A stretch of DNA of 64,000 nt from Bacteroides sp. (GTDB taxonomy: Bacteria > Bacteroidota > Bacteroidia > Bacteroidales > UBA7960), in assembly GCA_036351255.1 (NCBI GenBank), contig JAZBOS010000087.1, positions 25,490 to 89,489 on the forward strand. The letters are read 5' to 3'. The translations under genes were made by a program, and so were the position numbers. The first letter of the stretch is position 1, and every line of letters begins with the position of its first letter. Shown here one piece after another: positions 36,567-51,038 of this stretch. Under the pieces are notes generated by a model, which was not told the origin of the DNA, did not search any database, and worked only from the letters and a program-made list of their open reading frames with translations.

Positions 36567-37538
36567 ATGACCCTGAATGAAATCAAAGCGCCTGTTGAGG
36601 AACACCTGAAAGCTTTTGAGGCTCTTTTCAGGGAATCCATCAAAAGCAATATTCCACTGCTAAACATCATCATGCGTTACATCGTAAAACGCAAGGGTAA
36701 GCAGATGCGGCCGCTTTTTGTATTTTTCTCTGCAGGGCTTTTTTCTGAAATAAACGACAGAACCCTCCGGGCTGCTACCCTCATTGAAATGCTTCACACC
36801 GCAACGCTTATTCACGATGATGTGGTGGACGATAGCAACGAACGCCGAGGTTTCTTTTCGCTCAATGCCCTGTGGAAAAACAAAATCTCCGTTTTGGTTG
36901 GTGACTTTCTCCTCTCGCGAGGCTTACTTTTGGCCCTTGACCATGATGATTTCGACCTGCTCAAAATCGTTTCCAATTCTGTAAGGGAAATGAGTGAAGG
37001 CGAGTTGCTGCAGATCGAAAAAGCCCGAACCCTTGACATCGAGGAGTCGGTATATTTTGAGATCATCCGCAAAAAAACAGCCTCCCTGATCGCATCCTGT
37101 CTCGCGAGTGGCACGGCAGCAACAGGAGCAGACCCAGAAGACATTGAAAAGATGCGGCAGATTGGCGAGAAAATTGGCATCGCCTTCCAGATCAAAGACG
37201 ACATCCTTGACTTTGATCTCAGTGCCGACAAGGGAAAACCCTCTGGAGTGGATATCAAGGAACGGAAAATGACCCTGCCACTGATTTACATTCTCAATAA
37301 ATCAAGTAATTTGCAAAAACGGAAGATCATCAACATTGTCAAGAATCATAATAACAACCGGGAAAAGGTAGATTGGCTCATGCAGGAGGTGTTGGAGGGC
37401 GGTGGTATTGATTATGCCGTGGAAAAGATGACCCAATACCGGAACGAGGCTCTTGAGATGCTTGAGCATATGCCCGATACACCCGCAAGGGAATCCCTCA
37501 GGCAGCTCATTGACTTTACCATCCAGCGAAAAAGCTGA
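36567..37538 (+). CDS. Polyprenyl diphosphate synthase (trans-IPPS, long-chain type)
   Basis: The first Asp-rich motif LIHDDVVDD, the second motif FQIKDDILD, and GKQMRP are present. Confidence 0.9.
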   Translation: MTLNEIKAPVEEHLKAFEALFRESIKSNIPLLNIIMRYIVKRKGKQMRPLFVFFSAGLFSEINDRTLRAATLIEMLHTATLIHDDVVDDSNERRGFFSLNALWKNKISVLVGDFLLSRGLLLALDHDDFDLLKIVSNSVREMSEGELLQIEKARTLDIEESVYFEIIRKKTASLIASCLASGTAATGADPEDIEKMRQIGEKIGIAFQIKDDILDFDLSADKGKPSGVDIKERKMTLPLIYILNKSSNLQKRKIINIVKNHNNNREKVDWLMQEVLEGGGIDYAVEKMTQYRNEALEMLEHMPDTPARESLRQLIDFTIQRKS

Positions 37539-37611
37539 TCTTTTTTCTCGCCCTGATAAATATTTCGTCTGCGATTTGTTGAAAAAAGGCAGAAACCAAA
37601 GATTAAACCCC

Positions 37612-39144
37612 ATGATGAAAAACCCGTTTTCTTTTTTTCTTAAGAAAAGCCTGTTGACTTTTTGCATCTTTTTATTCACCAGCCTCATTATGCAGGCCCA
37701 GGACCTTCCCGAGATCAAAAAGCATGATCCCTCACTGATTGGCAAAGGAACCACCCTTGACGGAATTAAACAAGGCTTGTGGAATTACTTTAATGAGGAA
37801 GGAATCCTGCTTGAAAGCGGCCATTATGCTGGTGAAGAACGCACAGGCCTTTGGATCTTTTTTGACGAGCAGCAACAAAAGGCAGCACAAATAGATTATG
37901 ACAGTTTATACTATCGCGAATTCTTCCCCAACGGCGATATTGCAGGACAAGGCGCTTTGACAGACAAGCTGGAGAAAACCGGCTTGTGGACCTATTATCA
38001 CCTGAGCGAAAAGATCTGGGCACAGGGACAATACCGCGACGGAAAACAAACCGGAGAATGGTTATTCTGGTATGCGGAGGGCAATAAAAACGCCGAAGTC
38101 GCCATGGACAATGGCATCACAACCTGGTGGTATCCCGATGGAACGGTCGAAATGACCGGGCCAGTGAAAGCAGGACAACTCGATGGTGAATGGTCATACT
38201 ATTATACATCGGGCACACTTCGCGAAAAAAGTGTATTTAAGGAAGGTAAAAAAGAAGGTGCCTCACGCTTATATTATGAAAACGGCAATCCTGAATTTGA
38301 AGGCAATTTTAAGGAAGGCCTGCTTAATGGATTCTCAATGTGGTATTATGAAGACGGGCAACTTGAATCGGCAGGGAAGTCAGTTATGGATGTGCAGGAT
38401 AGTACCTGGACCTATTATTTTCAGAACGGGAACACTTCCTCTGAAGGAGATTTTGTGAATGGCAAAGAAAATGGTGTCTGGACCTTTTTATACACTACTG
38501 GTGAGAAACTGCGCCAGGGTCCAATGGTTGACGGCCAGCGGCACGGCGAATGGACCACCTGGTATCCCGGGGGAGAAATAAGCCACCAGGGTCCTTTTGT
38601 GAATGACCAGGAATACGGAACATGGACCAGTTGGTATGATAATGGCCAGATGCAGGATCGTGGCACCTTCACCCGGGGAAAAATGGATGAGCTCTGGGAG
38701 GGCTGGTTTGCAAACGGGACAAAACGTTATGAGGTCCGGTATGTGAATGGCGAACGCCACGGCTTGTCAAGCCATTGGTACGAAAACGGTAAGGCCCGCC
38801 AGTCAGCAAATTACGAAAATGGCCTCAACCATGGCATCTGGATTCGCTGGCAAGATAATGGCAACATGCTTGAAGAAGGCCAGTTTACCCAGGGTGAGCG
38901 CTCAGGGTTATGGGTTTACTATGATGGCAGCGGCACCAAATACCGCGAGCAGGAATACAGTGCGAGCAAAGCCCATGGCCACTTCACCACCTTTTACCCC
39001 GACGGCAGCAAAGAACAGGAAGGCTATTTTGTAGAAGGCCAGCGTCACGGAAACTGGACCTACTGGGACCCGGAAGGAAAGGTGATACGTACCATGCAGT
39101 TTGATAGAGGGAAAATGGTCAACCAAAAGGACTACAACAGGTAA
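37612..39144 (+). CDS. Secreted MORN-variant repeat protein (YwqK-like repeats)
   Basis: Signal peptide MMKNPFSFFLKKSLLTFCIFLFTSLIMQAQ. More than 15 tandem copies of the roughly 23-aa G.W..YY.NG......G.Y..G...G.W pattern follow. The upstream part of the ORF (37453-37611) overlaps the previous gene and was not used. Confidence 0.75.
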   Translation: MMKNPFSFFLKKSLLTFCIFLFTSLIMQAQDLPEIKKHDPSLIGKGTTLDGIKQGLWNYFNEEGILLESGHYAGEERTGLWIFFDEQQQKAAQIDYDSLYYREFFPNGDIAGQGALTDKLEKTGLWTYYHLSEKIWAQGQYRDGKQTGEWLFWYAEGNKNAEVAMDNGITTWWYPDGTVEMTGPVKAGQLDGEWSYYYTSGTLREKSVFKEGKKEGASRLYYENGNPEFEGNFKEGLLNGFSMWYYEDGQLESAGKSVMDVQDSTWTYYFQNGNTSSEGDFVNGKENGVWTFLYTTGEKLRQGPMVDGQRHGEWTTWYPGGEISHQGPFVNDQEYGTWTSWYDNGQMQDRGTFTRGKMDELWEGWFANGTKRYEVRYVNGERHGLSSHWYENGKARQSANYENGLNHGIWIRWQDNGNMLEEGQFTQGERSGLWVYYDGSGTKYREQEYSASKAHGHFTTFYPDGSKEQEGYFVEGQRHGNWTYWDPEGKVIRTMQFDRGKMVNQKDYNR

Positions 39145-39150
39145 TCTTCC

Positions 39151-39861
39151 CTATTCCTCTTTTTTTTCAAGAAATGCCTTGAGCTTCTGCTCAATCAGAA
39201 GGGCATGTTCTTCATTGATTGCCGAAAATTTTATTTCAAGGCAAGGCTGATTGTTGGCGTCTTTAACAAGGTTTATCAGGGGCTCATTTTCCAGAATGAT
39301 CCAGGGCATGTTAAAAAGCTCCTGTTTCACTTCTTCCGTCAAACCCGGTCTATCCTGCCCCTGCTTCAGGCAAAGCTTCAGCATCTGGCTATGGCCATGG
39401 CCTTTCTCAGGTGGGCTGGAAATAATGGCGTCACCAAGCTTCGAAAAGGGAACACGCACCTTCTCCCCTTTTTCGGTTTCAAGATGTAGGGTTCGGTAAC
39501 CTACCCTGAACACTTTGCCCGAAACCATCGGTGACTTAATAATTTGCCCCTTTTTAAACTCACTTTCAGTTTTAAGTAAAATACCACTGAGAAAATCCCT
39601 GAGGACATACCAGCCCATGGCCAGTACCAGCACCAGGGCCATTGCGCTTTCCACCACGCCTCGATAAGGCAATCCAGAAAAAACAATACGAGCGGCCCAA
39701 AATGCAAAGGCAAGCCATACCACAAATTCCACGAGGGGCAAAGAACGGAGCAAAAGGCTCCGCCAACGACTCTCTCCTGGAATGAGCAGGGCCAGGCGAT
39801 TAATCAGCTGCAGGGCAAAAAACAGCGCAAAACCCAGAATTACAATATACAGCAGATTCAT
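39151..39861 (-). CDS. Minimal MscS-like mechanosensitive channel family protein
   Basis: Three N-terminal TM helices are followed by LRDFLSGILLKTESEFKKGQIIKSPMVSGKVFRVGYRTLHLETEKGEKVRVPFSKL. This aligns by eye with the MscS pore-helix/beta-domain core (L.N..aG..l...rPf..GD.i.....G.V..i..r.T.l.t.dg..v.iPN..l). Its ATG overlaps the upstream stop codon. Confidence 0.65.
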   Translation of the reverse strand: MNLLYIVILGFALFFALQLINRLALLIPGESRWRSLLLRSLPLVEFVVWLAFAFWAARIVFSGLPYRGVVESAMALVLVLAMGWYVLRDFLSGILLKTESEFKKGQIIKSPMVSGKVFRVGYRTLHLETEKGEKVRVPFSKLGDAIISSPPEKGHGHSQMLKLCLKQGQDRPGLTEEVKQELFNMPWIILENEPLINLVKDANNQPCLEIKFSAINEEHALLIEQKLKAFLEKKEE

Positions 39862-42800
39862 AACAGGTTTTTCTTTTTTAATTGTTCCACCAGGTAAATA
39901 TCAAGGGCCGGATTAATGGCATATACCCCTTCAAATTTCTCAATAATCAATGCGGCGCGAAGCAGATCATTCACCTGATCTTTAACGATTGACTCAGAAA
40001 TCTGCAGGCTCAAGGCAAGGCTGCTCACTGAAAAACGCCGATGCATGATAAACTGCAAGATATAAAACAACTGCTCCTGGGTAAGCATTTCAAAAACACT
40101 ATCCGGAGGCACCTGGATAGGTTCCATATAAATGGTTCTTGCCGTAATCTTTTTGATGGAACTCAGCCAAAGAGAAATCTGCAGCCCCGGATTACCAAAT
40201 GACTGGTCAAAATAACGGTTAAACATCCTGGCATAATCCCAGGCAGTCATTTTACTCTCTTCTTTCTTGTTATACACAAACTTTAGCCCGCCAGCATGGT
40301 GCCTGAGCAGGATAATGTCCTGAAGTTCACGGGCATCGAAGGGCTTACATACCACCGCAGCCAGTGAATAGTTCAATATTCCCGTTGACTTATCAACGAT
40401 CTTGAGCGAATGCTCATTGATATTTATAATAAACAAGAATTTTCTTCCATACAAGTCAATGATCTCCTTGATCCATTCAATCACCTGCAACCCCCCCGGT
40501 TTTCTTTCCCACCAAAGCTCAAGATCGTGTATGATAAAGACTTTCCCTGCCGGCAGGGCGCTCATTACATCCACAAGCTTATCGGGCTGCACATGTAAGG
40601 TTTGGGCAATAGCTTCCTTGAAGGCTCCCAGATCAGCCTCGCAGGATTTCGGAGCCCGGATACTGTGGATATGCTCCTGGGCAAAATGTTTTCTGGCCAG
40701 GTATTTTGAAAGACTTGACTTGCCAGAACTGCGCTCGCCGGTAATAACCAATATTCCGGGAATCCCCACCTTGAAGCGTGCAATGGCTTGGGTACCCTCG
40801 GCAATCTGCTCATTCATGCCTACCCAGAAGTCATCGCTGGTGCCTGACAAACCCGAGAAAAGCGTGGCATAATAATAGGGTAGCTCCTTCATAATTTGAG
40901 CACGCGGGGTAACAGCCTCAACAAATGAGAGCAAGTCGCGGTTAGCCAGTTTTCCTGTCTGGCTTTTCTCAAAACGATTAGCCCAGACTATCCCTTCGCT
41001 TTTGCTATAGAGGAGGTTCACCAGGTTTTTCTGACCGAATTCCCTGAACTGTTCTGCCTGATGGTTGACCCACCTTGAGAATCGGCCATTCCCCTTCTCA
41101 CGCATTTTCTTCTTCAGATCTATATTGGTCTGGTTGATCACAGCAGATGACAAAGGCTCAAAAGATTGACGCAGACCTTCCTCAAAAGTCTTGAAAAACC
41201 CACTCAGGAATGTCCTGACCTTGTTTTCTTCCTCTTTAAGTCTGCTTGAAAAGTCCTTTAGCAGTTTTGCCGTTTCATCAGGGTAACTTTCTTTTTCTTC
41301 CCCTTCCGTCTGCTCAACGTCCATTTGCAAACTGAAATTAATCAGGCGCAGCAGATCCTTGATCCGGTTAACGCTTAACTGAAACTGGTATTCCGTATCC
41401 TGACCCTGCCCCTTAACCTTGTCAATTAGCAGGCTGCTAAGATAAAACCCGGATAACTTCCTGACTTTTACCACCACGGGATCAGGTTCGGGTAAAGCCC
41501 CTTTTTCAATTGCATCGGTAAAATTCTGCCCACTGATTTCAATTTCTTCCGGCATCTCCCCCAGAAGCTCCTTGACTTCCTCGAAGAATCCGGCATATAA
41601 CTTAAGCACTTGGGGCGTATTCAAGAGACTGTGATCCAATTGTTTTTCAACGGGTTCTCCTTTTTCGCTTGCTTCAAGAGCCTGAAGCAAATCAGCCTGG
41701 TAGGCTTTCAGCGGCCTGAGCATATTGGTTTCGATAAGCTGGCTGAAGTCCAGGTTATACTTCCTGATCTTCGAGTGGATGCGGCTGCGCAATGAAAGGA
41801 ACATGAAGTCGAGGACACCCTTATTGATGAACAGGTTCATGCTTTTCTCCCAAAGGGCTGGCAATTCCAGGAAAGTGACCTCCTGCTCCTGTTTTTTTTC
41901 AATCAGGGCCTTGAGGAATTTCTTCATGCGCGGATTCGTGCCAGCATTGTCCAGGTAATTGCTGAACTGCTGAAGGTCGTCAAGCAGACTATCAAACAAT
42001 TTGTTGCCTGCTTCAATACGGAAAGCGCGGGCTTCCGACTCCAGCAAAGACAGCTGGGCTTTTATTCTGTCCTTCTCAAGGTTAAGCTTTTCAAGGGCTT
42101 TGTCCTTGTCGCCAGCTTCAATCCGGGTCATTTCAATGACCTCGTGCAGGCTGGTAAAGATCTTACGCAGTGCAACAACGTCGCCAAATGCATCAATGGC
42201 ATAATCATTCATCAGCTCGCCAGCTACTTCCATTCGCCGCAGGTAAAGAAAATAACGGGCCACTTCCGATACCCTGATTTTTTTCGTGATTTGCTTTCCC
42301 CTTAGCTTGACCCGGAAACGCTGGAATGATTTATACGTACTGGTCCAAAACTTGTCGCGGCTTACGGTCTCAAAATCTTCCTTTTTTAATTGGATGCGCA
42401 GATACTCTGGCAGCGACTCCAGCATTAGTTTACTGTCTCTTACGTATACCTTATTGGCCGTTTCAAGGTGCTGTTCCTGGGTATGGACAATGATGCCTTT
42501 CAAAAAATCGATGCGTTTCCTGGCCTGGAAAGAGAAATCGTTCAGGATACGCAGAAATGCCTTGGGCTGTGCAGTGGGTTCAACAGTCTTGATTACCTTT
42601 CTCAACTGTTCAATTATTTTCCCCACATAGTTGCCCAAATCAGAATAAAAGGAAAATACATCGCCTGAAACCGCTTCATAAGCTTCTGAGTAATATCGCG
42701 AGGTCATGTCCTCAAGGGTCTCTCCTAAGTTGAAAACTTCTTTGGCCACAATATGCCTTGAAGGAGAAGTCAGTTTGGCCAATACATTAGGAGTGTGTTT

Positions 42801-45005
42801 TTCCATGGTTTCAGGATCTTTCTCCTTAATGGTTCTGCCAGGACTAAGGTTAATCTCATCAAAAAAGGTGGAGGCCCGAACCAAAAGGCAGGTTTTTAGG
42901 TCTTTCACCAAATCATTGGTTTTTTCATTGATTGAGACTCCTTTCTTGCTGGGTTCGGGCAATTCCAGGATTGTGAGGTCGGTGGCAGTAGATTCGGACA
43001 GGATGATTTCATTTTCAGGCAGTTGTTCAACCCCGTTATTGATCACTTTTACCGAGGCCTGCAAGCGGCTCTGATCCAGCAACTGCTGAACCAGGTGGTA
43101 AAGGCTTTCAGTCTTCGAACTGTCCTGGTTGATTACCAGAATACGAAGACTAGCGTTCATCCATTCCTTGCTGGAAGTAATGAACCGAAGTAATGTAAGA
43201 GCCAGCGAAAGGTTACGCCCGCTTCCGGTCCACCAGAAATCAATTTGTTTATAATTCCCAAAGCCTGCATCAGAATTATAATTCAGAAATACCGTGTTGT
43301 AATCCTGTTTTTTGAAGTTTTCCAGCAGTTGCGCAAATTTTTGGGGGTCCCGGGTTTTCCGGCCCCAGCCCATGAATATGGTGTTGGGCTCAAAACCTGA
43401 AAAACCATATACCCTGGAAATCAAATCGATCCCTTCATAAAAATCCCGGCAATGATGACGACGGGTAAAAACCCCTTCCTTGCGTAAAACCGGGGCGTTA
43501 AAGGTATTTTTATCATGCTCACGGAAAATAGCATCCGAATTAGGGTCTTCCACCAGCTCAAAGTTGGTAAAGATGCCCAGTTTACCCACAAGCGATTTCC
43601 CCATTTCGATCAGGTGGGGCCGGCTTAGTTCGCCACCGCTGAACAGGATCACATTGGGCCTCCAGTTGCGCGACTCGCGGCTGCTCGCCGTGAGTTTCTC
43701 CAGCCCGGTTTTCACCACCGAGGTCCATACACTGTTCCAGGTGTCTCCCGTCTGAAGGGTCAACTCTTTGCGCTTCAGAAAAAGGAAAAGGGCCATGAGA
43801 ACTACTGAGGCTACCAACAGGGCGATAATATCCAGCTGAATCATCACCACAATACATGCCAGGGCGCCAATGATACTAACAAAACGGGGAATTTTGAATG
43901 AAGGTCTAAAATCACTGCTGGCCCAGCTTTCAACTGCATAGGTAATGTTCAGGAAACCATACGTGATGATAAAGAAAATGGTAACCACGCGGGCTATCAC
44001 ATTTAATTCCCCGATCAGGATCCCTGCCTGAGCAATTACGTATGTAATCATCAGGGCATTCCGCGGCTCATTCGACGGACCATAACCTTTGCCTAAGAAA
44101 CGGGGAATAATGCGATCGATAGCCACTGCCTGAAGGATCCTTGGTGCCCCGAGAATGCTCCCCAAAGCAGAAGAAAGCGTGGCGCCAAGGATACCTGCAA
44201 TGACCAGTTGCGGAATCCAGGAAATGTTAAACAAGACATTGGGATCATTGACCAGCAAGTCGCGTTCAACGGTATGGGAAAAGAAAAACGCCAAACCAAT
44301 ATATACTACCAAACCCACCAAAATAGCAGAAATGGTACCTAATGGGATATCCTTTCGGGCATTTTTCAGGTCACCTGACATGGAAACCCCTGCCTCAAAT
44401 CCGGTCACCGCAGGAAAATAAATGGCGAACAAGGCGATCCAGGGAAGGGCACCTCTCATACCCTGAAAAAGGGGTTCTGCGGGAACAAAATCATGACGTC
44501 CAAAAAATACAGACACCAAAGAAAGCACCATGGCAGTCATTATCAGGTACTGGGTCTTGATCGCCAGTGAAGTACTGATAAAGGTAACTAAGGCCACTAA
44601 AAACAAAATGATCGACCCGGCAATACGAATGGTGAAAAGGCTAACTTCAAACCCAAAATAGGAAAGAAATGTCTCAGCAAAACCAATCAAATAAAGGCTT
44701 ACGCTAAAGGAAAGTCCCACAAAAAGGGCCAAACCCAATGTCCCCCCAATAGAAAGGCCGAGGCTGCGCGAAATAATGTAATAACTCCCCCCTGTTTCCA
44801 CTTGTTTATCGGTGGCCACCGAGGCTACGCTCAATCCTGTACTTAAGGAAATGATATGAGCCACCAGGATAATCCCCAGGGTCGCCCAAAGACCCGCCTG
44901 TCCAATGATCCAGGGCAAACGTAAATACATGATTACACCCAGAATAGTCAATATGGAAGGGGTAAATACCCCGCCAAATGCACCGAACTTCTTTGCTTTT
45001 ACCAC
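39858..45005 (-). CDS. 1715-aa fusion protein: SLC12/APC-type cation-chloride-cotransporter-like permease, then the SLC12 cytosolic C-domain, a long helical region, a P-loop (AAA+/ORC-Cdc6- or Arch_ATPase-like) NTPase and a wHTH-like tail
   Basis: It is a single uninterrupted ORF. The N-terminus FGAFGGVFTPSILTILGVIMYLRLPWIIGQAGL is the hallmark start of CCC/SLC12 permeases. About 11-12 hydrophobic helices run to roughly residue 412. NWRPNVILFSGG...FEPNTIFMGWG...IDFWW resembles the SLC12 C-domain. Walker A GERSSGKS and Walker B VFIIHDLE lie near residues 1423 and 1494. Confidence 0.8.
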   Translation of the reverse strand: MVKAKKFGAFGGVFTPSILTILGVIMYLRLPWIIGQAGLWATLGIILVAHIISLSTGLSVASVATDKQVETGGSYYIISRSLGLSIGGTLGLALFVGLSFSVSLYLIGFAETFLSYFGFEVSLFTIRIAGSIILFLVALVTFISTSLAIKTQYLIMTAMVLSLVSVFFGRHDFVPAEPLFQGMRGALPWIALFAIYFPAVTGFEAGVSMSGDLKNARKDIPLGTISAILVGLVVYIGLAFFFSHTVERDLLVNDPNVLFNISWIPQLVIAGILGATLSSALGSILGAPRILQAVAIDRIIPRFLGKGYGPSNEPRNALMITYVIAQAGILIGELNVIARVVTIFFIITYGFLNITYAVESWASSDFRPSFKIPRFVSIIGALACIVVMIQLDIIALLVASVVLMALFLFLKRKELTLQTGDTWNSVWTSVVKTGLEKLTASSRESRNWRPNVILFSGGELSRPHLIEMGKSLVGKLGIFTNFELVEDPNSDAIFREHDKNTFNAPVLRKEGVFTRRHHCRDFYEGIDLISRVYGFSGFEPNTIFMGWGRKTRDPQKFAQLLENFKKQDYNTVFLNYNSDAGFGNYKQIDFWWTGSGRNLSLALTLLRFITSSKEWMNASLRILVINQDSSKTESLYHLVQQLLDQSRLQASVKVINNGVEQLPENEIILSESTATDLTILELPEPSKKGVSINEKTNDLVKDLKTCLLVRASTFFDEINLSPGRTIKEKDPETMEKHTPNVLAKLTSPSRHIVAKEVFNLGETLEDMTSRYYSEAYEAVSGDVFSFYSDLGNYVGKIIEQLRKVIKTVEPTAQPKAFLRILNDFSFQARKRIDFLKGIIVHTQEQHLETANKVYVRDSKLMLESLPEYLRIQLKKEDFETVSRDKFWTSTYKSFQRFRVKLRGKQITKKIRVSEVARYFLYLRRMEVAGELMNDYAIDAFGDVVALRKIFTSLHEVIEMTRIEAGDKDKALEKLNLEKDRIKAQLSLLESEARAFRIEAGNKLFDSLLDDLQQFSNYLDNAGTNPRMKKFLKALIEKKQEQEVTFLELPALWEKSMNLFINKGVLDFMFLSLRSRIHSKIRKYNLDFSQLIETNMLRPLKAYQADLLQALEASEKGEPVEKQLDHSLLNTPQVLKLYAGFFEEVKELLGEMPEEIEISGQNFTDAIEKGALPEPDPVVVKVRKLSGFYLSSLLIDKVKGQGQDTEYQFQLSVNRIKDLLRLINFSLQMDVEQTEGEEKESYPDETAKLLKDFSSRLKEEENKVRTFLSGFFKTFEEGLRQSFEPLSSAVINQTNIDLKKKMREKGNGRFSRWVNHQAEQFREFGQKNLVNLLYSKSEGIVWANRFEKSQTGKLANRDLLSFVEAVTPRAQIMKELPYYYATLFSGLSGTSDDFWVGMNEQIAEGTQAIARFKVGIPGILVITGERSSGKSSLSKYLARKHFAQEHIHSIRAPKSCEADLGAFKEAIAQTLHVQPDKLVDVMSALPAGKVFIIHDLELWWERKPGGLQVIEWIKEIIDLYGRKFLFIININEHSLKIVDKSTGILNYSLAAVVCKPFDARELQDIILLRHHAGGLKFVYNKKEESKMTAWDYARMFNRYFDQSFGNPGLQISLWLSSIKKITARTIYMEPIQVPPDSVFEMLTQEQLFYILQFIMHRRFSVSSLALSLQISESIVKDQVNDLLRAALIIEKFEGVYAINPALDIYLVEQLKKKNLL
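39861..40865 (-). other. Domain: P-loop NTPase plus helical lid plus wHTH-like tail (about aa 1381-1715)
   Basis: Walker A GERSSGKS is at 40716-40739 (I verified the codons GGC GAG CGC AGT TCT GGC AAG TCA). Walker B VFIIHDLE is at 40518-40538. A sensor-1-like FLFIININ and a lid-like KPFDARELQDIILLRH follow. The terminal roughly 80 aa (LTQEQLFYILQFI...SLALSLQISESIVKDQVNDLLRAALIEK) looks like a winged helix. Confidence 0.6.
42846..43673 (-). other. Domain: SLC12-like cytosolic C-terminal domain (about aa 445-720)
   Basis: NWRPNVILFSGG, GFEPNTIFMGWG and IDFWWTGSGRNLSLALTL...LRILV give a Rossmann-like alternating pattern like the CCC C-domain. Boundaries are approximate. Confidence 0.5.
43770..45005 (-). 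other. Domain: APC/SLC12-type transmembrane permease module (about aa 1-412 of the fusion protein)
   Basis: The segment is continuously hydrophobic and helix-rich, with CCC-like motifs (GGSYYIISRSLG, AVTGFEAGVSMSGDLK, ATLSSALGSILGAPRILQA). Confidence 0.7.
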
Positions 45006-45213: not shown

Positions 45214-46446
45214 ATGGACATTCAAACCACATTAATCATTGTTTTTGTCGGGGTGTTGGTTTTTCTTGCCCATCTTTTTGCCGAATTTTTTCGCAGCCAG
45301 AAAATTCCTGATGTCCTTTTGCTGATCATTATCGGATTGGTGCTGGGGCCCTTTACCGGACTTGTTGACCCACAGTTTTTTGGAGGCATCGGGAGTGTCT
45401 TTACCAATATCACCCTGGTGGTTATCCTCTTTGAAGGAGGCACCAACCTGCGGTTCGATGTCTTGAGAAATGTCATCAAAGGTACAGCCAGCCTCACCAC
45501 CGTTAACTTTATTATCAGCAGCATACTGGTTGGGCTGGTTTCACTGGTCGTATTCGATTTTGATCCTGCCATGTCGTTTATGCTGGGCGCCTTTATTGGC
45601 GGAACAGCCTCGTCCATCGTAATCCCCATGGTGGCACAATTAAAGATTAACCAGGAATCCAAAACCATCCTCATCCTTGAATCTGCTGTCGGCAATGTCC
45701 TTAGCCTGGTCGTGGGTCTTACCTTTTTTGAGGCCCTAAAGTTGGGCCAGGTGAATTTTGGATTGATGCTCGGAAGCATTATGGCAGGTTTTCTGTTCTC
45801 CAGTGTCATTGGCGTGGTGGGCGGCATCGTCTGGTCTTTCCTGATCGACCATATGCGCAACCTGCAAAACTCCATATTCACCACCCCGGCTTTTGTGTTC
45901 ATCATCTATGGCATTGCCGAATTGCTTGGCTTCAGCGGAGCCATTGCTGCCCTAATGTTTGGTATCACCCTGGCAAATACCGATATGGTGCCACAACCCG
46001 TGGTGCAACGTTATACAAGCATTATTCCAAAGTCGCTGAACGAAATTGAGCGCGTGTTTTTTGCTGAGGTGGTTTTTTTACTCAAAACTTTTTTCTTTGT
46101 TTACATTGGGGTTTCCATCATGCTCACCGATTTCTTCTCCATTGCCGTAGGGACCATCCTGACCCTCCTGCTTTTCGCTTTCCGCATCCCTATTGTGAAA
46201 ATGTCGGTAAAACCTTCTATCCCACTCGATGACCGGGTCGTTATGTCGATGATGGTACCCAAAGGGCTTGCTTCGGCGGTGCTGGCTTCCCTACCAGCCC
46301 AGGCCGGAATGCCCGGAGGCGAATTGATTCAGAACATCACCTATTCGACCGTCCTGATCAGCATTGTCCTCAATTCAACCCTCATCATGCTCAACAACCG
46401 ATTCCCCATGATCGGAAAATCCTATGGCTACCTGTTAAAACCTTAA
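45214..46446 (+). CDS. Cation:proton antiporter (CPA1/NhaP-like fold) family protein, atypical ion-site motifs
   Basis: It has the Na_H_Exchanger layout: KIPDVLLLIIIGLVLGP, ILFEGG, GAFIGGTASSIVIP, ILESAVGNVLSLV, VPKGLASAVLA. About 12-13 TM helices, 410 aa. Confidence 0.8.
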   Translation: MDIQTTLIIVFVGVLVFLAHLFAEFFRSQKIPDVLLLIIIGLVLGPFTGLVDPQFFGGIGSVFTNITLVVILFEGGTNLRFDVLRNVIKGTASLTTVNFIISSILVGLVSLVVFDFDPAMSFMLGAFIGGTASSIVIPMVAQLKINQESKTILILESAVGNVLSLVVGLTFFEALKLGQVNFGLMLGSIMAGFLFSSVIGVVGGIVWSFLIDHMRNLQNSIFTTPAFVFIIYGIAELLGFSGAIAALMFGITLANTDMVPQPVVQRYTSIIPKSLNEIERVFFAEVVFLLKTFFFVYIGVSIMLTDFFSIAVGTILTLLLFAFRIPIVKMSVKPSIPLDDRVVMSMMVPKGLASAVLASLPAQAGMPGGELIQNITYSTVLISIVLNSTLIMLNNRFPMIGKSYGYLLKP

Positions 46447-46600: not shown

Positions 46601-48259
46601 ATGCGTTTTAAAAACTCCTTTCCCGCGTTTGGTCTCATTCTGTTTTTTCTTGGGTTAATTTTTTTTCCTTTTCTTGATGGATTTGGGCAGGAGCCTTCTC
46701 TGCCTGAGGCAAACCAGGAAGCCAGCGTCAATCTGAGTAGTCCTTACCACAGCATTCGCACCCACCTCGATTTCCTGGAAGCCGAAAATTATTATCCCGA
46801 CTCTGCTGCCCGGGCTTTTATGTATCCCGGCGTGAAACCAGAGCAGGCCCGCGAAGCTGCCATCAAGCTGAAGCAGATCCTCGACGGGCGCGGTTACCTC
46901 ATCGACCCCGAGCAAATTCCCCAAAACACGCACTATACCGATACAGTCACAGGGAACATGGTATTTGCTCCTCTTACCCAGTTTCCCGACATTTACCTGA
47001 TCAAAAGGGAAGGGAAATGGACCTACAGCCTCCATAGCATCAAAGAAATCGAAAAATTACACAACGAGGTATTTCCCTTTGGCATCGACCGCTTCCTCGA
47101 AGTGCTGCCCCACTCAGGCACCAGGCAATTTATCGGTTTGTATTTCTGGCAGTACCTGGGCATCCTGATCATTATTCTCCTGAGTTTTCTGCTGCATAAA
47201 CTGCTGACCTGGGTGTTCAGCAGGCTGCTCTATCGCGGTGCCTCCCAGCTGGGATACGACCGCCTGGTAAGGCCCTATCTGCTGCCCGTGGCCAAACCCC
47301 TGAGCCTGTTTATGGTGTTTGTGTTCATTGGTATCGTATTCCCGGTATTGCAGCTTCCCGTGGAGGTCTCAAAATATTTCATTTTCGCTTTCAAAGCCAT
47401 CCTGCCTTTCTTTGCCACTTTTGTGGTATACCGATTGGTGGATGTGTTTTCGCTTTACCTTGAAAGGCTTTCAGGAAAAAGCGACTCTAACCTTGAAAAC
47501 CACGTGGTTCCTCTTATCAGGAAGGTACTCAGGGTGTTTGTGATCATTATAGGCGGGCTCGTCATCTTGCAGAGCATCGGCGTGAACATCACCGCCTTGC
47601 TGGCAGGGATATCCATCGGGGGCCTGGCCCTGGCCCTGGCCGCCCAGGACACCCTCAAAAACCTGTTCGGCTCATTTATGATCTTTCTCGACAAGCCCTT
47701 CTCTGTAGGACACTGGATCACCAGCGGCGACATCGACGGTACGGTAGAGGAAGTGGGGTTTCGTTCCACCCGCGTGCGAACCTTCCGCAACTCGCTGACC
47801 TATGTCCCCAACGGCAAATTGGCCGATGCCACCATCGACAATCACGGCCTGCGACAGTACCGCCGTTTTTATATGCACATTGCCATAACCTACGATACCC
47901 CACCCGACCTGATCGAAGTATTTGTTGAAGGACTGCGCAAAATCGTGGATCGCAGCCCCAAAACCCGTAAAGACTTTTACATCATCGAGTTCAACGAAAT
48001 GGGCGACTTCGCCCTGAAGATCATGTTTTACATCTTCTTTACGGTGCCCACCTGGCCCGAAGAACTAAAGGCCCGTCACGAAATCCTCATTGAAATCGTC
48101 CGGCTGGCCGAAAAATTGGGCATCCGCTTTGCATTCCCCACCCAAACCCTGCACATGGAAAACTTCCCTGAAAAACGTTCGCAAACCCCACAGTACGACA
48201 TGGATATGAACGAATTCAGGAAGGTAATGGAAGACTATTTCAAAGAAAGTCAGCCATAA
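46601..48259 (+). CDS. Mechanosensitive ion channel family protein (MscS family, large N-terminal extension)
   Basis: A signal/TM helix, a periplasmic region and TM helices are followed by the MscS core LAAQDTLKNLFGSFMIFLDKPFSVGHWITSGDIDGTVEEVGFRSTRVRTFRNSLTYVPNGKL and the C-terminal alpha/beta domain. Confidence 0.9.
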   Translation: MRFKNSFPAFGLILFFLGLIFFPFLDGFGQEPSLPEANQEASVNLSSPYHSIRTHLDFLEAENYYPDSAARAFMYPGVKPEQAREAAIKLKQILDGRGYLIDPEQIPQNTHYTDTVTGNMVFAPLTQFPDIYLIKREGKWTYSLHSIKEIEKLHNEVFPFGIDRFLEVLPHSGTRQFIGLYFWQYLGILIIILLSFLLHKLLTWVFSRLLYRGASQLGYDRLVRPYLLPVAKPLSLFMVFVFIGIVFPVLQLPVEVSKYFIFAFKAILPFFATFVVYRLVDVFSLYLERLSGKSDSNLENHVVPLIRKVLRVFVIIIGGLVILQSIGVNITALLAGISIGGLALALAAQDTLKNLFGSFMIFLDKPFSVGHWITSGDIDGTVEEVGFRSTRVRTFRNSLTYVPNGKLADATIDNHGLRQYRRFYMHIAITYDTPPDLIEVFVEGLRKIVDRSPKTRKDFYIIEFNEMGDFALKIMFYIFFTVPTWPEELKARHEILIEIVRLAEKLGIRFAFPTQTLHMENFPEKRSQTPQYDMDMNEFRKVMEDYFKESQP

Positions 48260-48615: not shown

Positions 48616-49407
48616 TTACTTGATCACAATGATGGCTGCGGAATCGATCACCTGGAAGGTAAACGATTCGGTAAAGTAAAGCTGAACGGATTTATTGTTA
48701 TGCGACTCGTAACCAATGGAGAGGTCTTGTCCGATCACCATTTTGAAATCGCCTCCTCTTTCAGATACCAAATAGGCATCCTTAATGAAAGGGGCCAGGA
48801 TGATGGAACCGCCCAGCAGATTTTCGATCTGTTTGCGCAGGGGGTAGCCGCGCATAAAGCTGTTCACCATTTGCCATTTTTCGCTGTTGAGCACCAGGGT
48901 ATAGGGGCCTTCGATGGCATTGGCGTTGAATTTTGCCAGGGCCTGGGTAATGACACCCATAATTTCCTCAGCAGTTTCGGGGAAAGTCAATGCATCGTAA
49001 TCTGAGCTGTTTTTAAGCCCCGTGATGTTGCCGGGCTTAAAACCATCGTAAATGGCTTTTTCCTCAAATTGTGCAATCTTACGGGCGGCTTCTTCCATGG
49101 GGCCAAGGTCAATGTCTTCGGCACCGCGCGCCACATTGTCCAGTTCCCAAACGTTCAACTCAAAGGGAATGCGAGCCTCTACCAGGGGAAGAACCTGGTG
49201 AATGCCATATTTGACAGCATCCTTTTGGTTGGCAGGTACCTGGATGCGGCCGGTGGAAAGGGCGGCAAAATCCAGGCCTTTGGGGCCTTCAACATCTACA
49301 AATTTGCGGGCAGAGAGCGCTGCCGTGAGCACTTCTTTCGCGGTATCATTAATTTCGTCCCAAGCTTTTTGCGAAATGGGCGCCAGTGATTTTCTTAAAA
49401 TATCCAT
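48616..49407 (-). CDS. Family 1 encapsulin nanocompartment shell protein (HK97 fold, linocin M18-like)
   Basis: 263 aa. The N-terminus MDILRKSLAPISQKAWDEINDTAKEVL closely resembles the T. maritima-type encapsulin N-terminus as I recall it. It lies directly downstream of a cargo gene that carries a targeting peptide. Confidence 0.9.
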   Translation of the reverse strand: MDILRKSLAPISQKAWDEINDTAKEVLTAALSARKFVDVEGPKGLDFAALSTGRIQVPANQKDAVKYGIHQVLPLVEARIPFELNVWELDNVARGAEDIDLGPMEEAARKIAQFEEKAIYDGFKPGNITGLKNSSDYDALTFPETAEEIMGVITQALAKFNANAIEGPYTLVLNSEKWQMVNSFMRGYPLRKQIENLLGGSIILAPFIKDAYLVSERGGDFKMVIGQDLSIGYESHNNKSVQLYFTESFTFQVIDSAAIIVIK

Positions 49408-49421
49408 TGTTTTCCTCCTTT

Positions 49422-49793
49422 TTATTTTTTGATTTTTCCTAATCCTAATGAATCGTCGTCAGCTTTGGGGGCATCGTCATGGTCGTGGTCATCGTGCTCG
49501 TGGTCATCGCCATGCGCGCCCATGATATCCCCTTCCTTGAACAACCAGTTGCGCAACTCCTCATCCCAGCCGGGCATATTGCGCCGCAGCCATTCGAGGG
49601 TCATGCAGGCATGTTCAATTTCTTCATCGCGGTTGTGGGCCATAATATCGGCCAAGTCCTTATCGTTGGTAGTGACCACACGCTGATGGTACCAGTCAAC
49701 GGCTTCAATTTCTTCTTTCAGGCTGTTTAATGCACGCGAAAAATTACGCGCTTCCTGAGTTAACTCTTCGGTGGGTTCGTGATAGTTCGACAT
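49422..49793 (-). CDS. Encapsulated ferritin-like protein (EncFtn-type cargo) with a C-terminal encapsulin targeting peptide
   Basis: EEIEAVDWYHQR and AHNRDEEIEHACMTLEWLRRN match the EncFtn core (compare R. rubrum EncFtn). A His/Asp-rich linker is followed by the terminal DDSLGLGKIKK. Confidence 0.9.
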   Translation of the reverse strand: MSNYHEPTEELTQEARNFSRALNSLKEEIEAVDWYHQRVVTTNDKDLADIMAHNRDEEIEHACMTLEWLRRNMPGWDEELRNWLFKEGDIMGAHGDDHEHDDHDHDDAPKADDDSLGLGKIKK

Positions 49794-50282: not shown

Positions 50283-51038
50283 ATGATCAATGGCAAAAAG
50301 GTTGTGGTGGTGCTTCCGGCCTATAATGCAGGGAAGACGCTGGAGGCGACCTACAATGAGATAGATTTTTCGGTAGTGGATGAGGTGATCCTGGTGGATG
50401 ACCTGAGCAAGGATGATACGCTGGAAGTGGCGCGGCGGCTGGGCATCCGCCATATTGTTGAGCACGCGCGCAACAAGGGCTACGGGGGTAACCAGAAATC
50501 CTGCTATAACAAAGCCCTGCAGATCGGGGGGGATATTGTGATCATGCTTCATCCCGATTATCAGTATACGCCAAAGCTGATTCCTGCCATGGCCCACCTG
50601 ATCGCCTCGGGTCTTTATCACGTGGTCCTTGGTTCGCGAATTCTGGGCAAAGGAGCCCTGGCAGGGGGCATGCCCATGATCAAGTATTTAGCCAACCGGG
50701 GGCTGACCTTTATTCAGAACCTCCTGATGAATGCCAAATTATCGGAGTACCATACGGGTTACAGGGCTTTCTCGCGCGAGGTGCTGGAAAGGGTTAATTT
50801 CATGGCCAATTCCGATAATTTCGTTTTCGACAACCAGATGCTTGCCCAGATCTGGTATGCGGGCTACGAAATTGCCGAGATCACCTGCCCGACCAAATAT
50901 TTTGACGATGCCTCAAGTATCAATTTGAAGAACAGTTCCATATACGGGCTAGGGGTGTTGAAAACCTCGCTGCAATACCGCCTTCAGAAATGGGGCTGGA
51001 TGAAATTCAAAATATTTGACCATGAAGCGGTTCATTGA
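50283..51038 (+). CDS. Family 2 glycosyltransferase (polyprenol-phosphate sugar transferase, DPM1/ArnC-like)
   Basis: VVVLPAYNAGKTLE, ILVDDLSKDDT and HPDYQY (DxD-like) are present. The start could be 50142, but the ATG at 50283 gives the typical short N-terminus. Confidence 0.8.
   Translation: MINGKKVVVVLPAYNAGKTLEATYNEIDFSVVDEVILVDDLSKDDTLEVARRLGIRHIVEHARNKGYGGNQKSCYNKALQIGGDIVIMLHPDYQYTPKLIPAMAHLIASGLYHVVLGSRILGKGALAGGMPMIKYLANRGLTFIQNLLMNAKLSEYHTGYRAFSREVLERVNFMANSDNFVFDNQMLAQIWYAGYEIAEITCPTKYFDDASSINLKNSSIYGLGVLKTSLQYRLQKWGWMKFKIFDHEAVH

Follow-up and report, generated by a model that had tools for sequence, protein, structure and literature searches.

Background

Cation-chloride cotransporters (CCCs, SLC12) are dimers held together through their C-domains, and AAA+ modules of the ORC/Cdc6/STAND kind serve as slow nucleotide-dependent switches rather than motors. 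To our knowledge, CCC homologues of prokaryotes, for example MaCCC of Methanosarcina acetivorans, stop after the C-domain, and no described SLC12 protein has a stalk-AAA+-winged-helix extension. The MaCCC C-terminal domain is of the alpha/beta type and mediates dimerization (PMC4301019).

The window is the whole 64,000-nucleotide stretch of Bacteroides sp. DNA that was analyzed. On its minus strand, as a first-pass annotation had reported, a single frame runs without internal stops through a CCC permease and into a C-terminal ATPase; it opens with GTG. We see about an even chance that this gene and its downstream neighbor form a two-gene ion/osmotic homeostasis operon of Bacteroidota, with a cotransporter controlled by a nucleotide switch. 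The features are as follows.

39858..45005, minus strand: whole fused gene, an uninterrupted ORF of 1715 codons (1715 aa) in the order CCC permease, SLC12 C-domain, helical stalk, AAA+, winged helix
43770..45005, minus strand: residues 1-412, 12-TM APC/LeuT-fold CCC (SLC12) transport domain (Pfam AA_permease; NKCC-type Na+, K+ and 2 Cl- site residues)
42846..43673, minus strand: residues 445-720, SLC12-type cytosolic C-terminal domain (TIGR00930, Pfam SLC12, KCC chains)
40839..42845, minus strand: residues 721-1389, elongated all-alpha stalk with short beta-hairpin inserts (AlphaFold2 model)
40110..40838, minus strand: residues 1390-1632, AAA+ alpha/beta base and helical lid, ORC/Cdc6-, AAA_16- and STAND-like (AlphaFold2, Foldseek, weak Pfam)
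40716..40739, minus strand: Walker A/P-loop GERSSGKS, residues 1423-1430 (conserved in the 102-member set)
40518..40541, minus strand: Walker B VFIIHDLE, residues 1489-1496, then a conserved WWER (conserved in the 102-member set)
39861..40109, minus strand: residues 1633-1715, C-terminal winged-helix domain (modeled as helix-helix-helix followed by a beta-hairpin wing)
39151..39861, minus strand: MscS-like partner gene, 236 aa, 3 predicted TM helices and a beta-domain (Pfam MS_channel_2nd, YnaI alignment)
45214..46446, plus strand: divergent CPA-type cation/H+ antiporter (Pfam Na_H_Exchanger, E=1e-35; context, not universal)
46601..48259, plus strand: second, canonical MscS-family channel, 552 aa (Pfam MS_channel_1st, 2nd and 3rd; context, not universal)

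The transporter half

The first-pass annotation assigned residues 1-412 to a CCC permease and the region that follows to an SLC12 cytosolic C-domain, and database searches bear out both assignments. Pfam AA_permease matches residues 13-411 (E=4.5e-45); the K-Cl cotransporter model TIGR00930 of NCBIfam reaches E=1.7e-110, most strongly over residues 262-667; and Pfam SLC12 scores 25.4 bits at residues 586-666, slightly below its 27-bit cut-off. A sequence search of the PDB recovers NKCC1 and KCC1-4 (1e-72 to 1e-65), and the KCC alignments extend to residue 656; 6vwa, the isolated C-domain of a K+/Cl- cotransporter, also matches the C-domain region (E=0.0034).

Human NKCC1 can be aligned from TM1 through TM12. 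The NKCC1 Na+ site residues A610, S613, and S614 correspond to A275, S278, and S279 of the fused protein, the K+ site residues Y383, P496, and T499 to Y76, P198, and T201, and the Cl- site residues G301-V302-M303, G500, and Y686 to G23-V24-I25, G202, and Y349 (NKCC1 sites from PMC7889885). Ion-site residues are kept in 91-102 of the 102 full-length members on which all family conservation counts are based; the sole variable position aligns with NKCC1 L502, a backbone-mediated ligand. Since these residues are conserved and no part of the protein is better conserved than the membrane domain (median identity 65%), the permease looks functional at the sequence level. Gene 1 most likely encodes a working cation-chloride cotransporter of the Na+/K+/2Cl- type, its transport direction and stoichiometry being presumed.

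The stalk and the AAA+ head

Residues 721-1389, previously described as helical sequence with no recognizable motif, indeed match nothing in Pfam, PADLOC, or PDB sequences. The AlphaFold2 model (pLDDT 79.8, pTM 0.70) is all-helical apart from the short beta-hairpins, with helices up to 77 residues long, and Foldseek relates it to no known fold in the PDB (best E=0.36). The sequence evolves fast (median identity to the window protein of 16% over residues 721-1320) and the length is conserved (602-736 aa across the 102 members). With no known homologue as a guide, the stalk is hard to interpret. It places ~670 aa between ATPase and transporter, a long path for a signal.

For the C-terminal third, the first-pass annotation predicted a P-loop NTPase whose lid resembles that of ORC/Cdc6 and whose end is winged-helix-like, and made the presence of the P-loop fold one test of its proposal; modeling and Foldseek confirm an AAA+ fold. 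The AlphaFold2 model of residues 1325-1715 (pLDDT 88.6, pTM 0.84) finds its best PDB matches in Cdc6, archaeal Orc1/Cdc6, RuvB, and Apaf-1 (E ~2e-8 to 1e-7, probability 1.00), and ZAR1, CED-4, and NOD2 are also among the matches. Pfam matches are weak. Among 30 members, AAA_16 is detected in 29, AAA_14 in 20, AAA_22 in 19, and ATPase_2 and nSTAND3 in 17 each, and all the AAA matches of the window protein fall under their gathering thresholds.

The Walker A motif lies exactly where it had been placed and Walker B is likewise present. G1423 and G1428 are found in 102/102 members, K1429 in 96/102, and S/T1430 in 100/102; Walker B residues D1494 and E1496 are each kept in 94/102. Within the WWER sequence, W1498 is conserved in 98, W1499 in 100, and R1501 in 90 of the 102, and R1568 is invariant (102/102). 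Because no fewer than 94 of the 102 members keep the Walker motifs and the AAA+/lid/winged-helix fold is confidently modeled and matches Cdc6/Orc1, RuvB, and Apaf-1, the ATPase looks competent. Hydrolysis and classical AAA+ ring oligomerization are uncertain, since an arginine finger was looked for in the AAA+ module and none was identified, and the family carries 'GNPG' at the position of the Cdc6 sensor-2 motif, which we take to be 'GDAR'.

The winged-helix profile weakly resembles MarR/ArsR-type wHTH chains in the PDB (E ~2e-3), and H1655 in the first long helix of the domain is near-invariant (99/102). This fold and its weak likeness to MarR/ArsR/HlyU regulators favor a membrane-tethered regulator, or 'transceptor', whose head would bind DNA or a cytosolic factor according to ion flux or transporter state; salt status would be coupled to transcription or another cytosolic process, with the transporter mainly a sensor and anchor. 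The best structural matches, Orc1/Cdc6, are DNA binders, and one source (JGI) labels a homologue 'amino acid transporter/biotin operon repressor'. However, the winged helix is not basic (median net charge 0 over 102 members) and residues 1671-1683, the predicted recognition helix, show little conservation and, R1683 excepted, are not basic either, so a switch or packing role fits better than DNA reading. The strongest conservation, moreover, lies in the transporter ion sites, which points to real transport, and apart from the MscS-like gene no conserved target gene is found nearby. We regard such a regulator as unlikely.

Integrity and distribution of the family

The fusion is genuine. Whether orthologues are fused or split had been posed as a check, and the permease and AAA+ halves occupy a single ORF at every related locus with at least 2.3 kb of upstream DNA. 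A scan of GTDB species genomes yielded 200 stretches that encode a relative, and a profile search gave 454 clusters (50% identity) at E<=1e-30. An assembly artefact is therefore excluded; chance falls far short of explaining a 1715-codon open frame kept in numerous independent assemblies, and the fused gene is both real and under selection. Of the best 150 among the 454 clusters, most are 1670-1830 aa long and match from about residue 730 to the end. Two shorter homologues are only apparently so: one is an artefact of a run of N, and the other comprises two overlapping gene calls, interpreted as a frameshift.

All 80 loci kept from the GTDB scan are from Bacteroidota (80/80), and one KSB1-labeled fragment is the sole named organism outside this phylum. 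The family appears to be large and essentially restricted to Bacteroidota; the first-pass annotation mentioned neither this distribution nor the MscS-like operon partner. It did say that it knew of no described transporter with this architecture, and our searches agree: the Pfam and NCBIfam matches include no named family for it and a literature search found no paper on it, so the design is apparently undescribed in the searchable literature.

The locus is not an island, as GC content is homogeneous and the GlyRS and polyprenyl synthase genes are syntenic neighbors in the window and in L001, which together with the 80 GTDB loci makes up our 81-locus counts. Polyprenyl synthase is present in 25/81 loci. 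The CPA-type antiporter, which NCBIfam K+/H+ antiporter models match under their cut-offs, adjoins the fused gene in only 5/80 GTDB loci and in L001; a Na_H_Exchanger gene adjoins the operon in L082 as well. The canonical MscS has a tblastn match in 17/81 loci, mostly full-length and upstream of the fused gene, and cation/H+ antiporter, second MscS, and TrkH/TrkA genes adjoin the operon in several genomes. Many host metagenome-assembled genomes bear CSSed, T3Sed, or B1Sed isolate names, presumably denoting soda-lake sediment samples. Gene context and these sample sources suggest an osmotic function.

The MscS-like partner

The fused gene and an MscS-like channel gene make up a conserved two-gene operon, with the fused gene in first place. 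In the window the partner ATG overlaps the stop codon of the fused gene (ATGA), and 79/81 loci have the MscS-like gene immediately downstream, in the same orientation (74/76 where there is more than 800 bp of room). The partner protein scores 37.2 bits against Pfam MS_channel_2nd (cut-off 20.2) and can be aligned with TM3b and the beta-domain of YnaI; it matches no NCBIfam MscS model.

A translationally coupled partner that is nearly always present, together with a rigid stalk that, in the model, may be long enough to reach an MscS-type channel at its cytoplasmic cage, would also suit a scaffold or assembly factor. Stalk and head would then serve to organize or remodel membrane complexes, whether the MscS-like heptamer or others, and the target of the ATPase would be the partner channel, not the transporter. 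Yet two loci have no MscS-like gene downstream of the fused gene, and we know of no ORC/Cdc6-type AAA+ proteins that are remodeling machines. This role seems quite unlikely.

Proposed mechanism

In the switch-controlled cotransporter that we prefer, the SLC12 C-domain runs into the rigid ~670-aa stalk, which bears the AAA+ and winged-helix head at its end. Binding and hydrolysis of ATP/ADP would alter the conformation or self-association of the head and, given that CCCs dimerize through their C-domains, a dimer would carry two stalks, each tipped by a head. Relayed along the stalk to the C-domain and membrane domain, the alteration in the head would switch salt uptake on or off. The small MscS-like channel would provide the matching release valve and possibly also a physical partner of the fused protein, such that the pair would regulate salt entry and exit. 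We infer the gating, the dimerization, and the contact with the channel.

Very unlikely, in our estimation, is a head that makes the secondary carrier ATP-driven or ATP-primed, as ArsA does ArsB. The conserved Walker motifs look catalytic, the covalent linkage is kept at every informative locus, and ArsAB is a generally known precedent for pairing carrier and ATPase, but the fold places the head in the ORC/Cdc6/STAND switch group and not among motor AAA+ clades or ABC/ArsA-type energizers, the stalk separates head from membrane domain, and every coupling-ion site of the gradient-driven NKCC is kept.

The first-pass annotation had left a regulated transporter and a conflict system side by side; the former is now favored, because PADLOC finds no significant match, no defense signature was seen at the locus, GC is homogeneous, the ion sites are conserved, and the neighbors are housekeeping or ion-transport genes. 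A STAND-like NTPase that would detect an invader and respond by opening the CCC and/or the MscS-like channel so that the cell collapses (abortive infection) is highly improbable: weak AAA_16/nSTAND3 matches, the WW after Walker B, Foldseek matches to Apaf-1, ZAR1, CED-4, and NOD2, and the general frequency of membrane effectors in conflict systems speak for it, but the protein ends at the winged helix with no sensor repeat domain beyond, conservation peaks in the effector part, whose substrate sites are retained, every organism named is from Bacteroidota but for the one fragment, and the loci compared show neither the patchiness nor the defense-island context typical of defense genes.

Comparison with known systems

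Eukaryotic SLC12 proteins (NKCC1, NCC, and KCC1-4; PDB sequence matches of 1e-72 to 1e-55) share the 12-TM LeuT-fold domain, the Na+/K+/two Cl- site residues, and the two-lobed cytosolic C-domain. The fused protein lacks their long N-terminal phospho-regulatory tail, starting 6 residues ahead of TM1 homology, has a short extracellular loop, and carries ~1000 extra C-terminal residues (stalk, AAA+, and winged helix). MaCCC-like prokaryotic CCCs likewise combine a CCC with a C-terminal domain, whereas the fused family runs ~1000 residues further, with an ATPase.

The head shares its AAA+ base, helical lid, and winged helix with Orc1/Cdc6 and the AAA_16/ATPase_2/STAND group, along with the pre-Walker-A 'FWVGR/M', Walker B 'hhhhxDLELWW', and lid 'CxPF..EL..I...RH' motifs. 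It differs in its attachment to a transporter via a long stalk, in its non-basic winged helix, and in the lack of TPR, WD40, or LRR sensor repeats (versus STAND proteins). The partner shares with the MscS family (E. coli MscS, YnaI) an above-cut-off MS_channel_2nd domain and the YnaI TM3b and beta-domain alignment, but is only 236 aa long and its gene nearly always follows that of the fused transporter. The ArsAB arsenite pump also joins a secondary carrier to a P-loop ATPase, but ArsA is a separate SIMIBI-class polypeptide that docks directly on ArsB, whereas the AAA+ switch-type domain is covalently linked and far from the carrier.

We favor an analogy with nucleotide-regulated ion transport (Trk/Ktr with RCK/KTN, Kef, KimA with c-di-AMP, and the KCC C-domain nucleotide site), in which cytosolic nucleotide binding gates ion flux; the likeness would be one of mode of action, not of family membership. 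In those systems the domain in question is a small one, of the Rossmann-like RCK, USP-like, or another type, whereas the fused protein would use an AAA+ switch at the tip of its stalk.

Integrity of the fused gene

The operon and the landmarks referred to in the text all lie on the minus strand of the window:

39858-45005 (-), fused gene: CCC permease, SLC12 C-domain, helical stalk, AAA+ domain and winged helix
39151-39861 (-), partner gene: 236-aa MscS-like protein
40839-42845 (-), stalk, residues 721-1389 of the fused protein
40716-40739 (-), Walker A motif GERSSGKS, residues 1423-1430
40185-40196 (-), lid motif GNPG, residues 1604-1607
40041-40043 (-), H1655 of the winged helix

The fused gene opens with GTG and runs through 1715 codons as a single ORF, free of internal stops. 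The first-pass annotation had read it as a cation-chloride cotransporter (CCC)-like permease joined to a P-loop NTPase with a winged-helix-like tail, and translation and profile searches find the ORF and every listed element, including the Walker A motif, at the positions claimed. The same annotation had raised the concern of an assembly or frameshift artefact and the question of whether the parts are fused or split in related Bacteroidota. In every related locus with at least 2.3 kb of upstream sequence, the permease and the C-terminal module share one ORF of 1655 to 1805 codons from stop to stop; a permease match is absent only where a contig end truncates the locus. Searches with the C-terminal 994 residues also recover full-length homologues of 1703-1738 aa, down to 38% identity, in independent NCBI, JGI, ENA and Logan assemblies. 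The fusion is genuine and not an artefact.

Among the short homologues, artefact tracing covered two. P0010 (933 aa) was considered as a stand-alone C-terminal half and rejected: its locus, L001, contains a run of N within one continuous ORF. P0174 (345 aa), a candidate for a separate short gene, overlaps a 1361-aa permease call and is read as a frameshift. The other short matches are mostly on short contigs, where they look like probable fragments of the fused family, with a few on contigs of 9-13 kb.

Transporter domain and SLC12-like C-domain

Pfam AA_permease covers residues 13-411 (E = 4.5e-45), and the NCBIfam K-Cl cotransporter model TIGR00930 matches at E = 1.7e-110, with its best stretch over residues 262-667. 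The score of 370.7 bits misses the curated whole-protein cut-off of 953.4 bits, so the fused protein is a CCC homologue that falls outside that curated subfamily. Among PDB sequences the strongest similarity is to NKCC1 (3.7e-72), followed by KCC1-4 (about 1e-69 to 1e-65), with no meaningful match in this database past residue 720. The membrane domain is alignable to human NKCC1 from TM1 through TM12 and is a 12-TM domain of the APC/LeuT fold, homologous to the SLC12/CCC class (TC 2.A.30). For the cytosolic C-domain, Pfam SLC12 scores 25.4 bits on residues 586-666, just under its 27-bit cut-off, alignments to KCC chains extend to residue 656, and 6vwa, a K+/Cl- cotransporter C-domain in isolation, is matched at E = 0.0034; by these alignments it is probably a divergent SLC12-type member. 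The Pfam, NCBIfam and PDB matches support the CCC permease and, less firmly, the SLC12-like C-domain of the initial description. Conservation was counted over 102 full-length members aligned with MAFFT, and identity to the window protein varies strongly by region.

Median identity to the window protein by region (102 members)
Region; residues; median identity
Membrane domain; 1-440; 65%
SLC12 C-domain; 441-720; 40%
Middle region; 721-1320; 16%
NTPase; 1321-1600; 34%
Winged helix; 1601-1715; 27%

The ion sites of NKCC1 are formed by L297, W300, A610, S613 and S614 (Na+), N298, I299, Y383, P496 and T499 (K+), G301, V302 and M303 (Cl-1), and G500, I501, L502 and Y686 (Cl-2) (PMC7889885). At the Na+ site, S278 and S279 (NKCC1 S613 and S614) are retained in 100 of the 102 members and A275 (A610) in 101. 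The K+-site equivalents are Y76 (Y383; 91/102, with Phe in 10), P198 (P496; 102/102) and T201 (T499; 99/102). The Cl- sites are represented by G23-V24-I25 (G301-V302-M303), present in at least 100 of 102, and by G202 (G500) and Y349 (Y686), each in 101. All of the side-chain ligands are thus conserved in the fused family; the ligands that differ are those that NKCC1 provides through the backbone only (N298 to T, W300 to L, and L502 to E or T). Since the ion-site side chains, P198, A275 and the glycines are maintained, the membrane domain looks, at the level of residue conservation, like a working NKCC-type carrier and not a decayed anchor.

Helical stalk

The AlphaFold2 model of residues 716-1395, built from 19 sequences (pLDDT 79.8, pTM 0.70), consists of very long helices, the longest with 77 residues, and of short β-hairpins at two places. 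This agrees with the charged, helical and motif-free middle region noted at first pass, and the stalk has no match in Pfam, PADLOC or PDB sequence searches. The model displays two similar units, each composed of paired long helices and a small β-hairpin, making an internal duplication possible. Foldseek detects no structural relative of this ~670-aa element in the PDB (no significant match, best E = 0.36); ClyA-type α-pore-forming toxins (SmhA, AhlB, NheA and MakA) were not taken as a match because their probability is at most 0.15. Despite fast sequence divergence, the length is held at 602-736 aa across the 102 members. On the strength of the model, we read the stalk as a presumptive rigid spacer with a fold so far undescribed.

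AAA+/winged-helix head

The head was modeled with AlphaFold2 over residues 1325-1715 using a 30-sequence alignment (pLDDT 88.6, pTM 0.84). It comprises a five-stranded α/β base, a helical lid and a winged helix. Foldseek identifies yeast Cdc6 (7tji_I, 1.9e-8), Aeropyrum ORC2 (1w5t, 3.7e-8) and RuvB (1in6, 5.1e-8) as the closest PDB structures, followed by Sulfolobus Orc1/Cdc6 (7.4e-8), Apaf-1 (3shf, 1.5e-7) and then ZAR1, CED-4 and NOD2, all with probability 1.00 and about 345-420 aligned columns. The model and these matches bear out the P-loop NTPase fold proposed earlier for the C-terminal third. At the level of Pfam, the window protein reaches the gathering score of none of AAA_16 (22.3 vs 32.6), AAA_22 (20.7 vs 27), ATPase_2 or nSTAND3 (16.9 vs 27.2); weak matches near AAA_16, AAA_14, AAA_22, ATPase_2 and nSTAND3 recur in 17-29 of 30 members. 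We place the head in the AAA+ clan, in the vicinity of ORC/Cdc6, AAA_16 and STAND but outside any defined Pfam family.

The nucleotide-binding motifs are well preserved in the 102 members. In Walker A (GxxxxGK[ST]), G1423 and G1428 are invariant, S/T1430 occurs in 100 and K1429 in 96; Walker B (hhhhD/E) has D1494 and E1496 in 94, followed by W1498, W1499 and R1501. The sensor-1-like segment carries N1528 (73/102) and N1530 (78/102), and the lid P1555 (92/102), H1569 (97/102) and R1568 of the lid helix (102/102). The lid motif 'CKPFDARELQDIILLRH' may correspond to 'FPPY...IL..R' of Orc1/Cdc6, and we treat this as a lead. In GNPG, residues G1604, P1606 and G1607 are invariant in a 12-member alignment. 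Cdc6 carries the sensor-2 'GDAR' at this place, and GNPG may also be likened to the GxP motif found in STAND proteins and in archaeal ATPase_2 proteins. Set against the arginine finger and sensor-2 arginine of classical oligomeric AAA+ and Orc1-Cdc6 proteins, the conserved arginines observed are R1568 in the lid helix and R1501 after Walker B. The most conserved feature of the winged helix is 'QF[VI]LH[KR]R' in its first long helix, with H1655 in 99 of 102. We presume candidate parallels, with positions assigned by sequence, between H1655 and the STAND MHD/His and between GNPG and the GxP nucleotide contacts. Because the protein ends at the winged helix, it has no STAND-type sensor repeat domain; Pfam finds no TPR, WD40 or LRR there.

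MscS-like partner and gene neighborhood

The ATG of the partner gene overlaps the stop codon of the fused gene (ATGA). Its 236-aa product has three hydrophobic segments within residues 3-96 and an MscS β-domain at residues 86-144 (Pfam MS_channel_2nd, 37.2 bits against a cut-off of 20.2), and aligns with YnaI residues 154-233, which span TM3b and the β-domain, in keeping with a pore-lining TM3 ahead of the β-domain. No NCBIfam model (MscS, MscK or MscM) matches at E ≤ 0.01, and a search for wider homologues returned close relatives alone, at 55-100% identity. As far as these profiles indicate, the protein is a member of a divergent small MscS subfamily. In 79 of 81 loci, or 74 of the 76 with more than 800 bp of room, the fused gene is immediately followed on its own strand by a partner homologue, and in many of them the two genes abut, with zero gap between aligned coordinates. 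The sole two loci without an MscS-like gene after the fused gene, L032 (8337-10100) and L080 (8623-10900), are genuine exceptions. A 229-aa multi-TM protein with no family assigned is encoded ~1.6 kb downstream of the fused gene in L080.

Ion-homeostasis genes near the operon are frequent but not universal. The window has a divergent cation/H+ antiporter and a 552-aa MscS, locus L001 has a Na+/H+ exchanger, TrkH and TrkA, and in locus L082 a Na+/H+ exchanger follows the partner gene. Rfam reveals no elements in the window from 36 to 50 kb, and so no regulatory RNA is seen around the operon. Other neighboring genes are:

37453-39144 (+), 563-aa MORN_2-repeat protein, convergent with the MscS-like gene and syntenic in 17 of 81 loci (tblastn)
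48616-49793 (-), encapsulin shell gene (Linocin_M18, E = 6.7e-87) with an EncFtn-like cargo gene (E = 2.5e-40) ahead of it
51016-52683 (+), 555-aa ORF without a Pfam match at E ≤ 1e-3
53311-55359 (+), 682-aa ORF, likewise

The encapsulin and EncFtn-like pair is an ordinary iron-storage nanocompartment operon beside the ion-transport cluster.

Distribution

A GTDB scan with one genome per GTDB species yielded 200 stretches encoding a relative of the fused protein. The 80 loci kept are all from Bacteroidota, most of them Bacteroidales MAGs, with Prolixibacteraceae, Marinilabiliaceae, Tenuifilaceae, Rikenellaceae, Muribaculaceae, Cyclobacteriaceae and Sphingobacteriia among the other labels. Many of the host MAGs bear isolate names with CSSed, T3Sed or B1Sed, which we take to be soda-lake sediment samples. 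The sole label seen from outside the phylum is that of P0176, a partial family member assigned to 'candidate division KSB1 bacterium', which may stem from lateral transfer or from a contig placed in the wrong bin. In some MAGs the CCC-AAA+ gene is present two or three times (JAWOHT01, loci L040, L043 and L053; CAYLYP01, loci L049 and L080), mostly each with its own MscS-like gene. These multiple copies suggest gene duplication, perhaps with specialization, though contaminated bins may also account for them.

When 1.84 billion cluster representatives were searched exhaustively with a profile, 1994 matched at E ≤ 1e-3, of which 1212 reached E ≤ 1e-10 and 454 reached E ≤ 1e-30. The best 150 of the 1994 are mostly 1670-1830 aa long and align from about residue 730 to the C-terminus; all are fused-family members, with no stand-alone NTPase relatives among them. 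Beyond these 150, the stalk and head may have remoter relatives or relatives with other fusion partners. A word-indexed search with a 30-sequence profile produced short matches at E ≤ 7e-84 that were considered as stand-alone NTPase modules and read instead as fused-family fragments. Source annotations of the homologues are 'hypothetical protein' or 'amino acid transporter', and 'ATP-binding protein' for fragments.

Proposed mechanism

An intact-looking NKCC-type carrier, a long stalk and an intact-looking AAA+ switch module are joined in one conserved polypeptide, and the fused gene forms a conserved operon with the MscS-like gene. Because its structural relatives Orc1/Cdc6 and the STAND proteins are nucleotide-dependent switches, we infer that the head is one as well. 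It would control salt cotransport through the stalk and C-domain, and the MscS-like protein would serve as a paired efflux valve. In the CCCs of animals, activity depends on the C-domain docking against the membrane domain, and dimers form through the C-domain (PMC4301019; PMC8280820). We give this overall reading, a nucleotide-switched salt cotransporter with a paired MscS-like valve, roughly an even chance.

The fused protein might instead be a membrane-tethered regulator, which we regard as improbable: DNA binding by the winged helix is disfavored by its charge, which is not basic (median net charge 0 over 102 members), and by poor conservation of the predicted recognition helix. That it acts as a scaffold or remodeller of the MscS-like channel is quite improbable, and that it is an ATP-energized pump is very improbable. 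A conflict system has hardly any likelihood and is rejected because any defense signature is absent, with no significant match in PADLOC-DB 2.0 (the best being wHTH-only matches to CasR and Csa3, E = 1e-3 to 1e-2) and even GC content across the window from 30 to 55 kb.

The switched cotransporter may be taken a step further. A dimeric cotransporter could bear two long helical arms tipped with AAA+/winged-helix heads, an arrangement reminiscent of SMC or Rad50 in which the membrane dimer would take the place of the hinge. By engaging in an ATP-dependent manner, the heads would clamp or let go of both the transporter and the MscS-like channel translated with it. We advance this new class of transporter control tentatively and consider it rather unlikely; if true, it would be a self-contained bacterial cell-volume regulator, with salt entry and exit both regulated in one complex.

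Comparison with known systems

CCC/SLC12 transporters are major drug targets, and those of animals are regulated by kinases acting on disordered tails; regulation of the bacterial homologues is, to our knowledge, almost unstudied. The fused family offers a natural CCC with a putative nucleotide switch built into the polypeptide, and its compact 12-TM domain, with the NKCC ion sites kept, could be a tractable model for structure and mechanism. The gene is common in anaerobic Bacteroidales of saline, alkaline and engineered habitats, and it may therefore contribute significantly to their salt adaptation, having escaped annotation until now.

The first-pass annotation knew of no transporter with this architecture, and our searches of the literature on prokaryotic and Bacteroidetes CCCs, SLC12 with AAA+, and cotransporter/mechanosensitive-channel operons likewise found no description of it. 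The head differs from STAND NTPases in having no C-terminal sensor repeats (TPR, WD40 or LRR). The protein resembles CCCs in fold and ion sites, and probably in its C-domain, but carries ~1000 residues more than every described member. It is, as far as we know, the first example in which a secondary transporter is joined to an AAA+ switch module of the ORC/Cdc6/STAND kind, and it comes with a dedicated, putative MscS-like valve. We see in it a CCC that is widespread in Bacteroidota and has two additions, a channel partner of its own and a built-in AAA+ regulatory apparatus without precedent.
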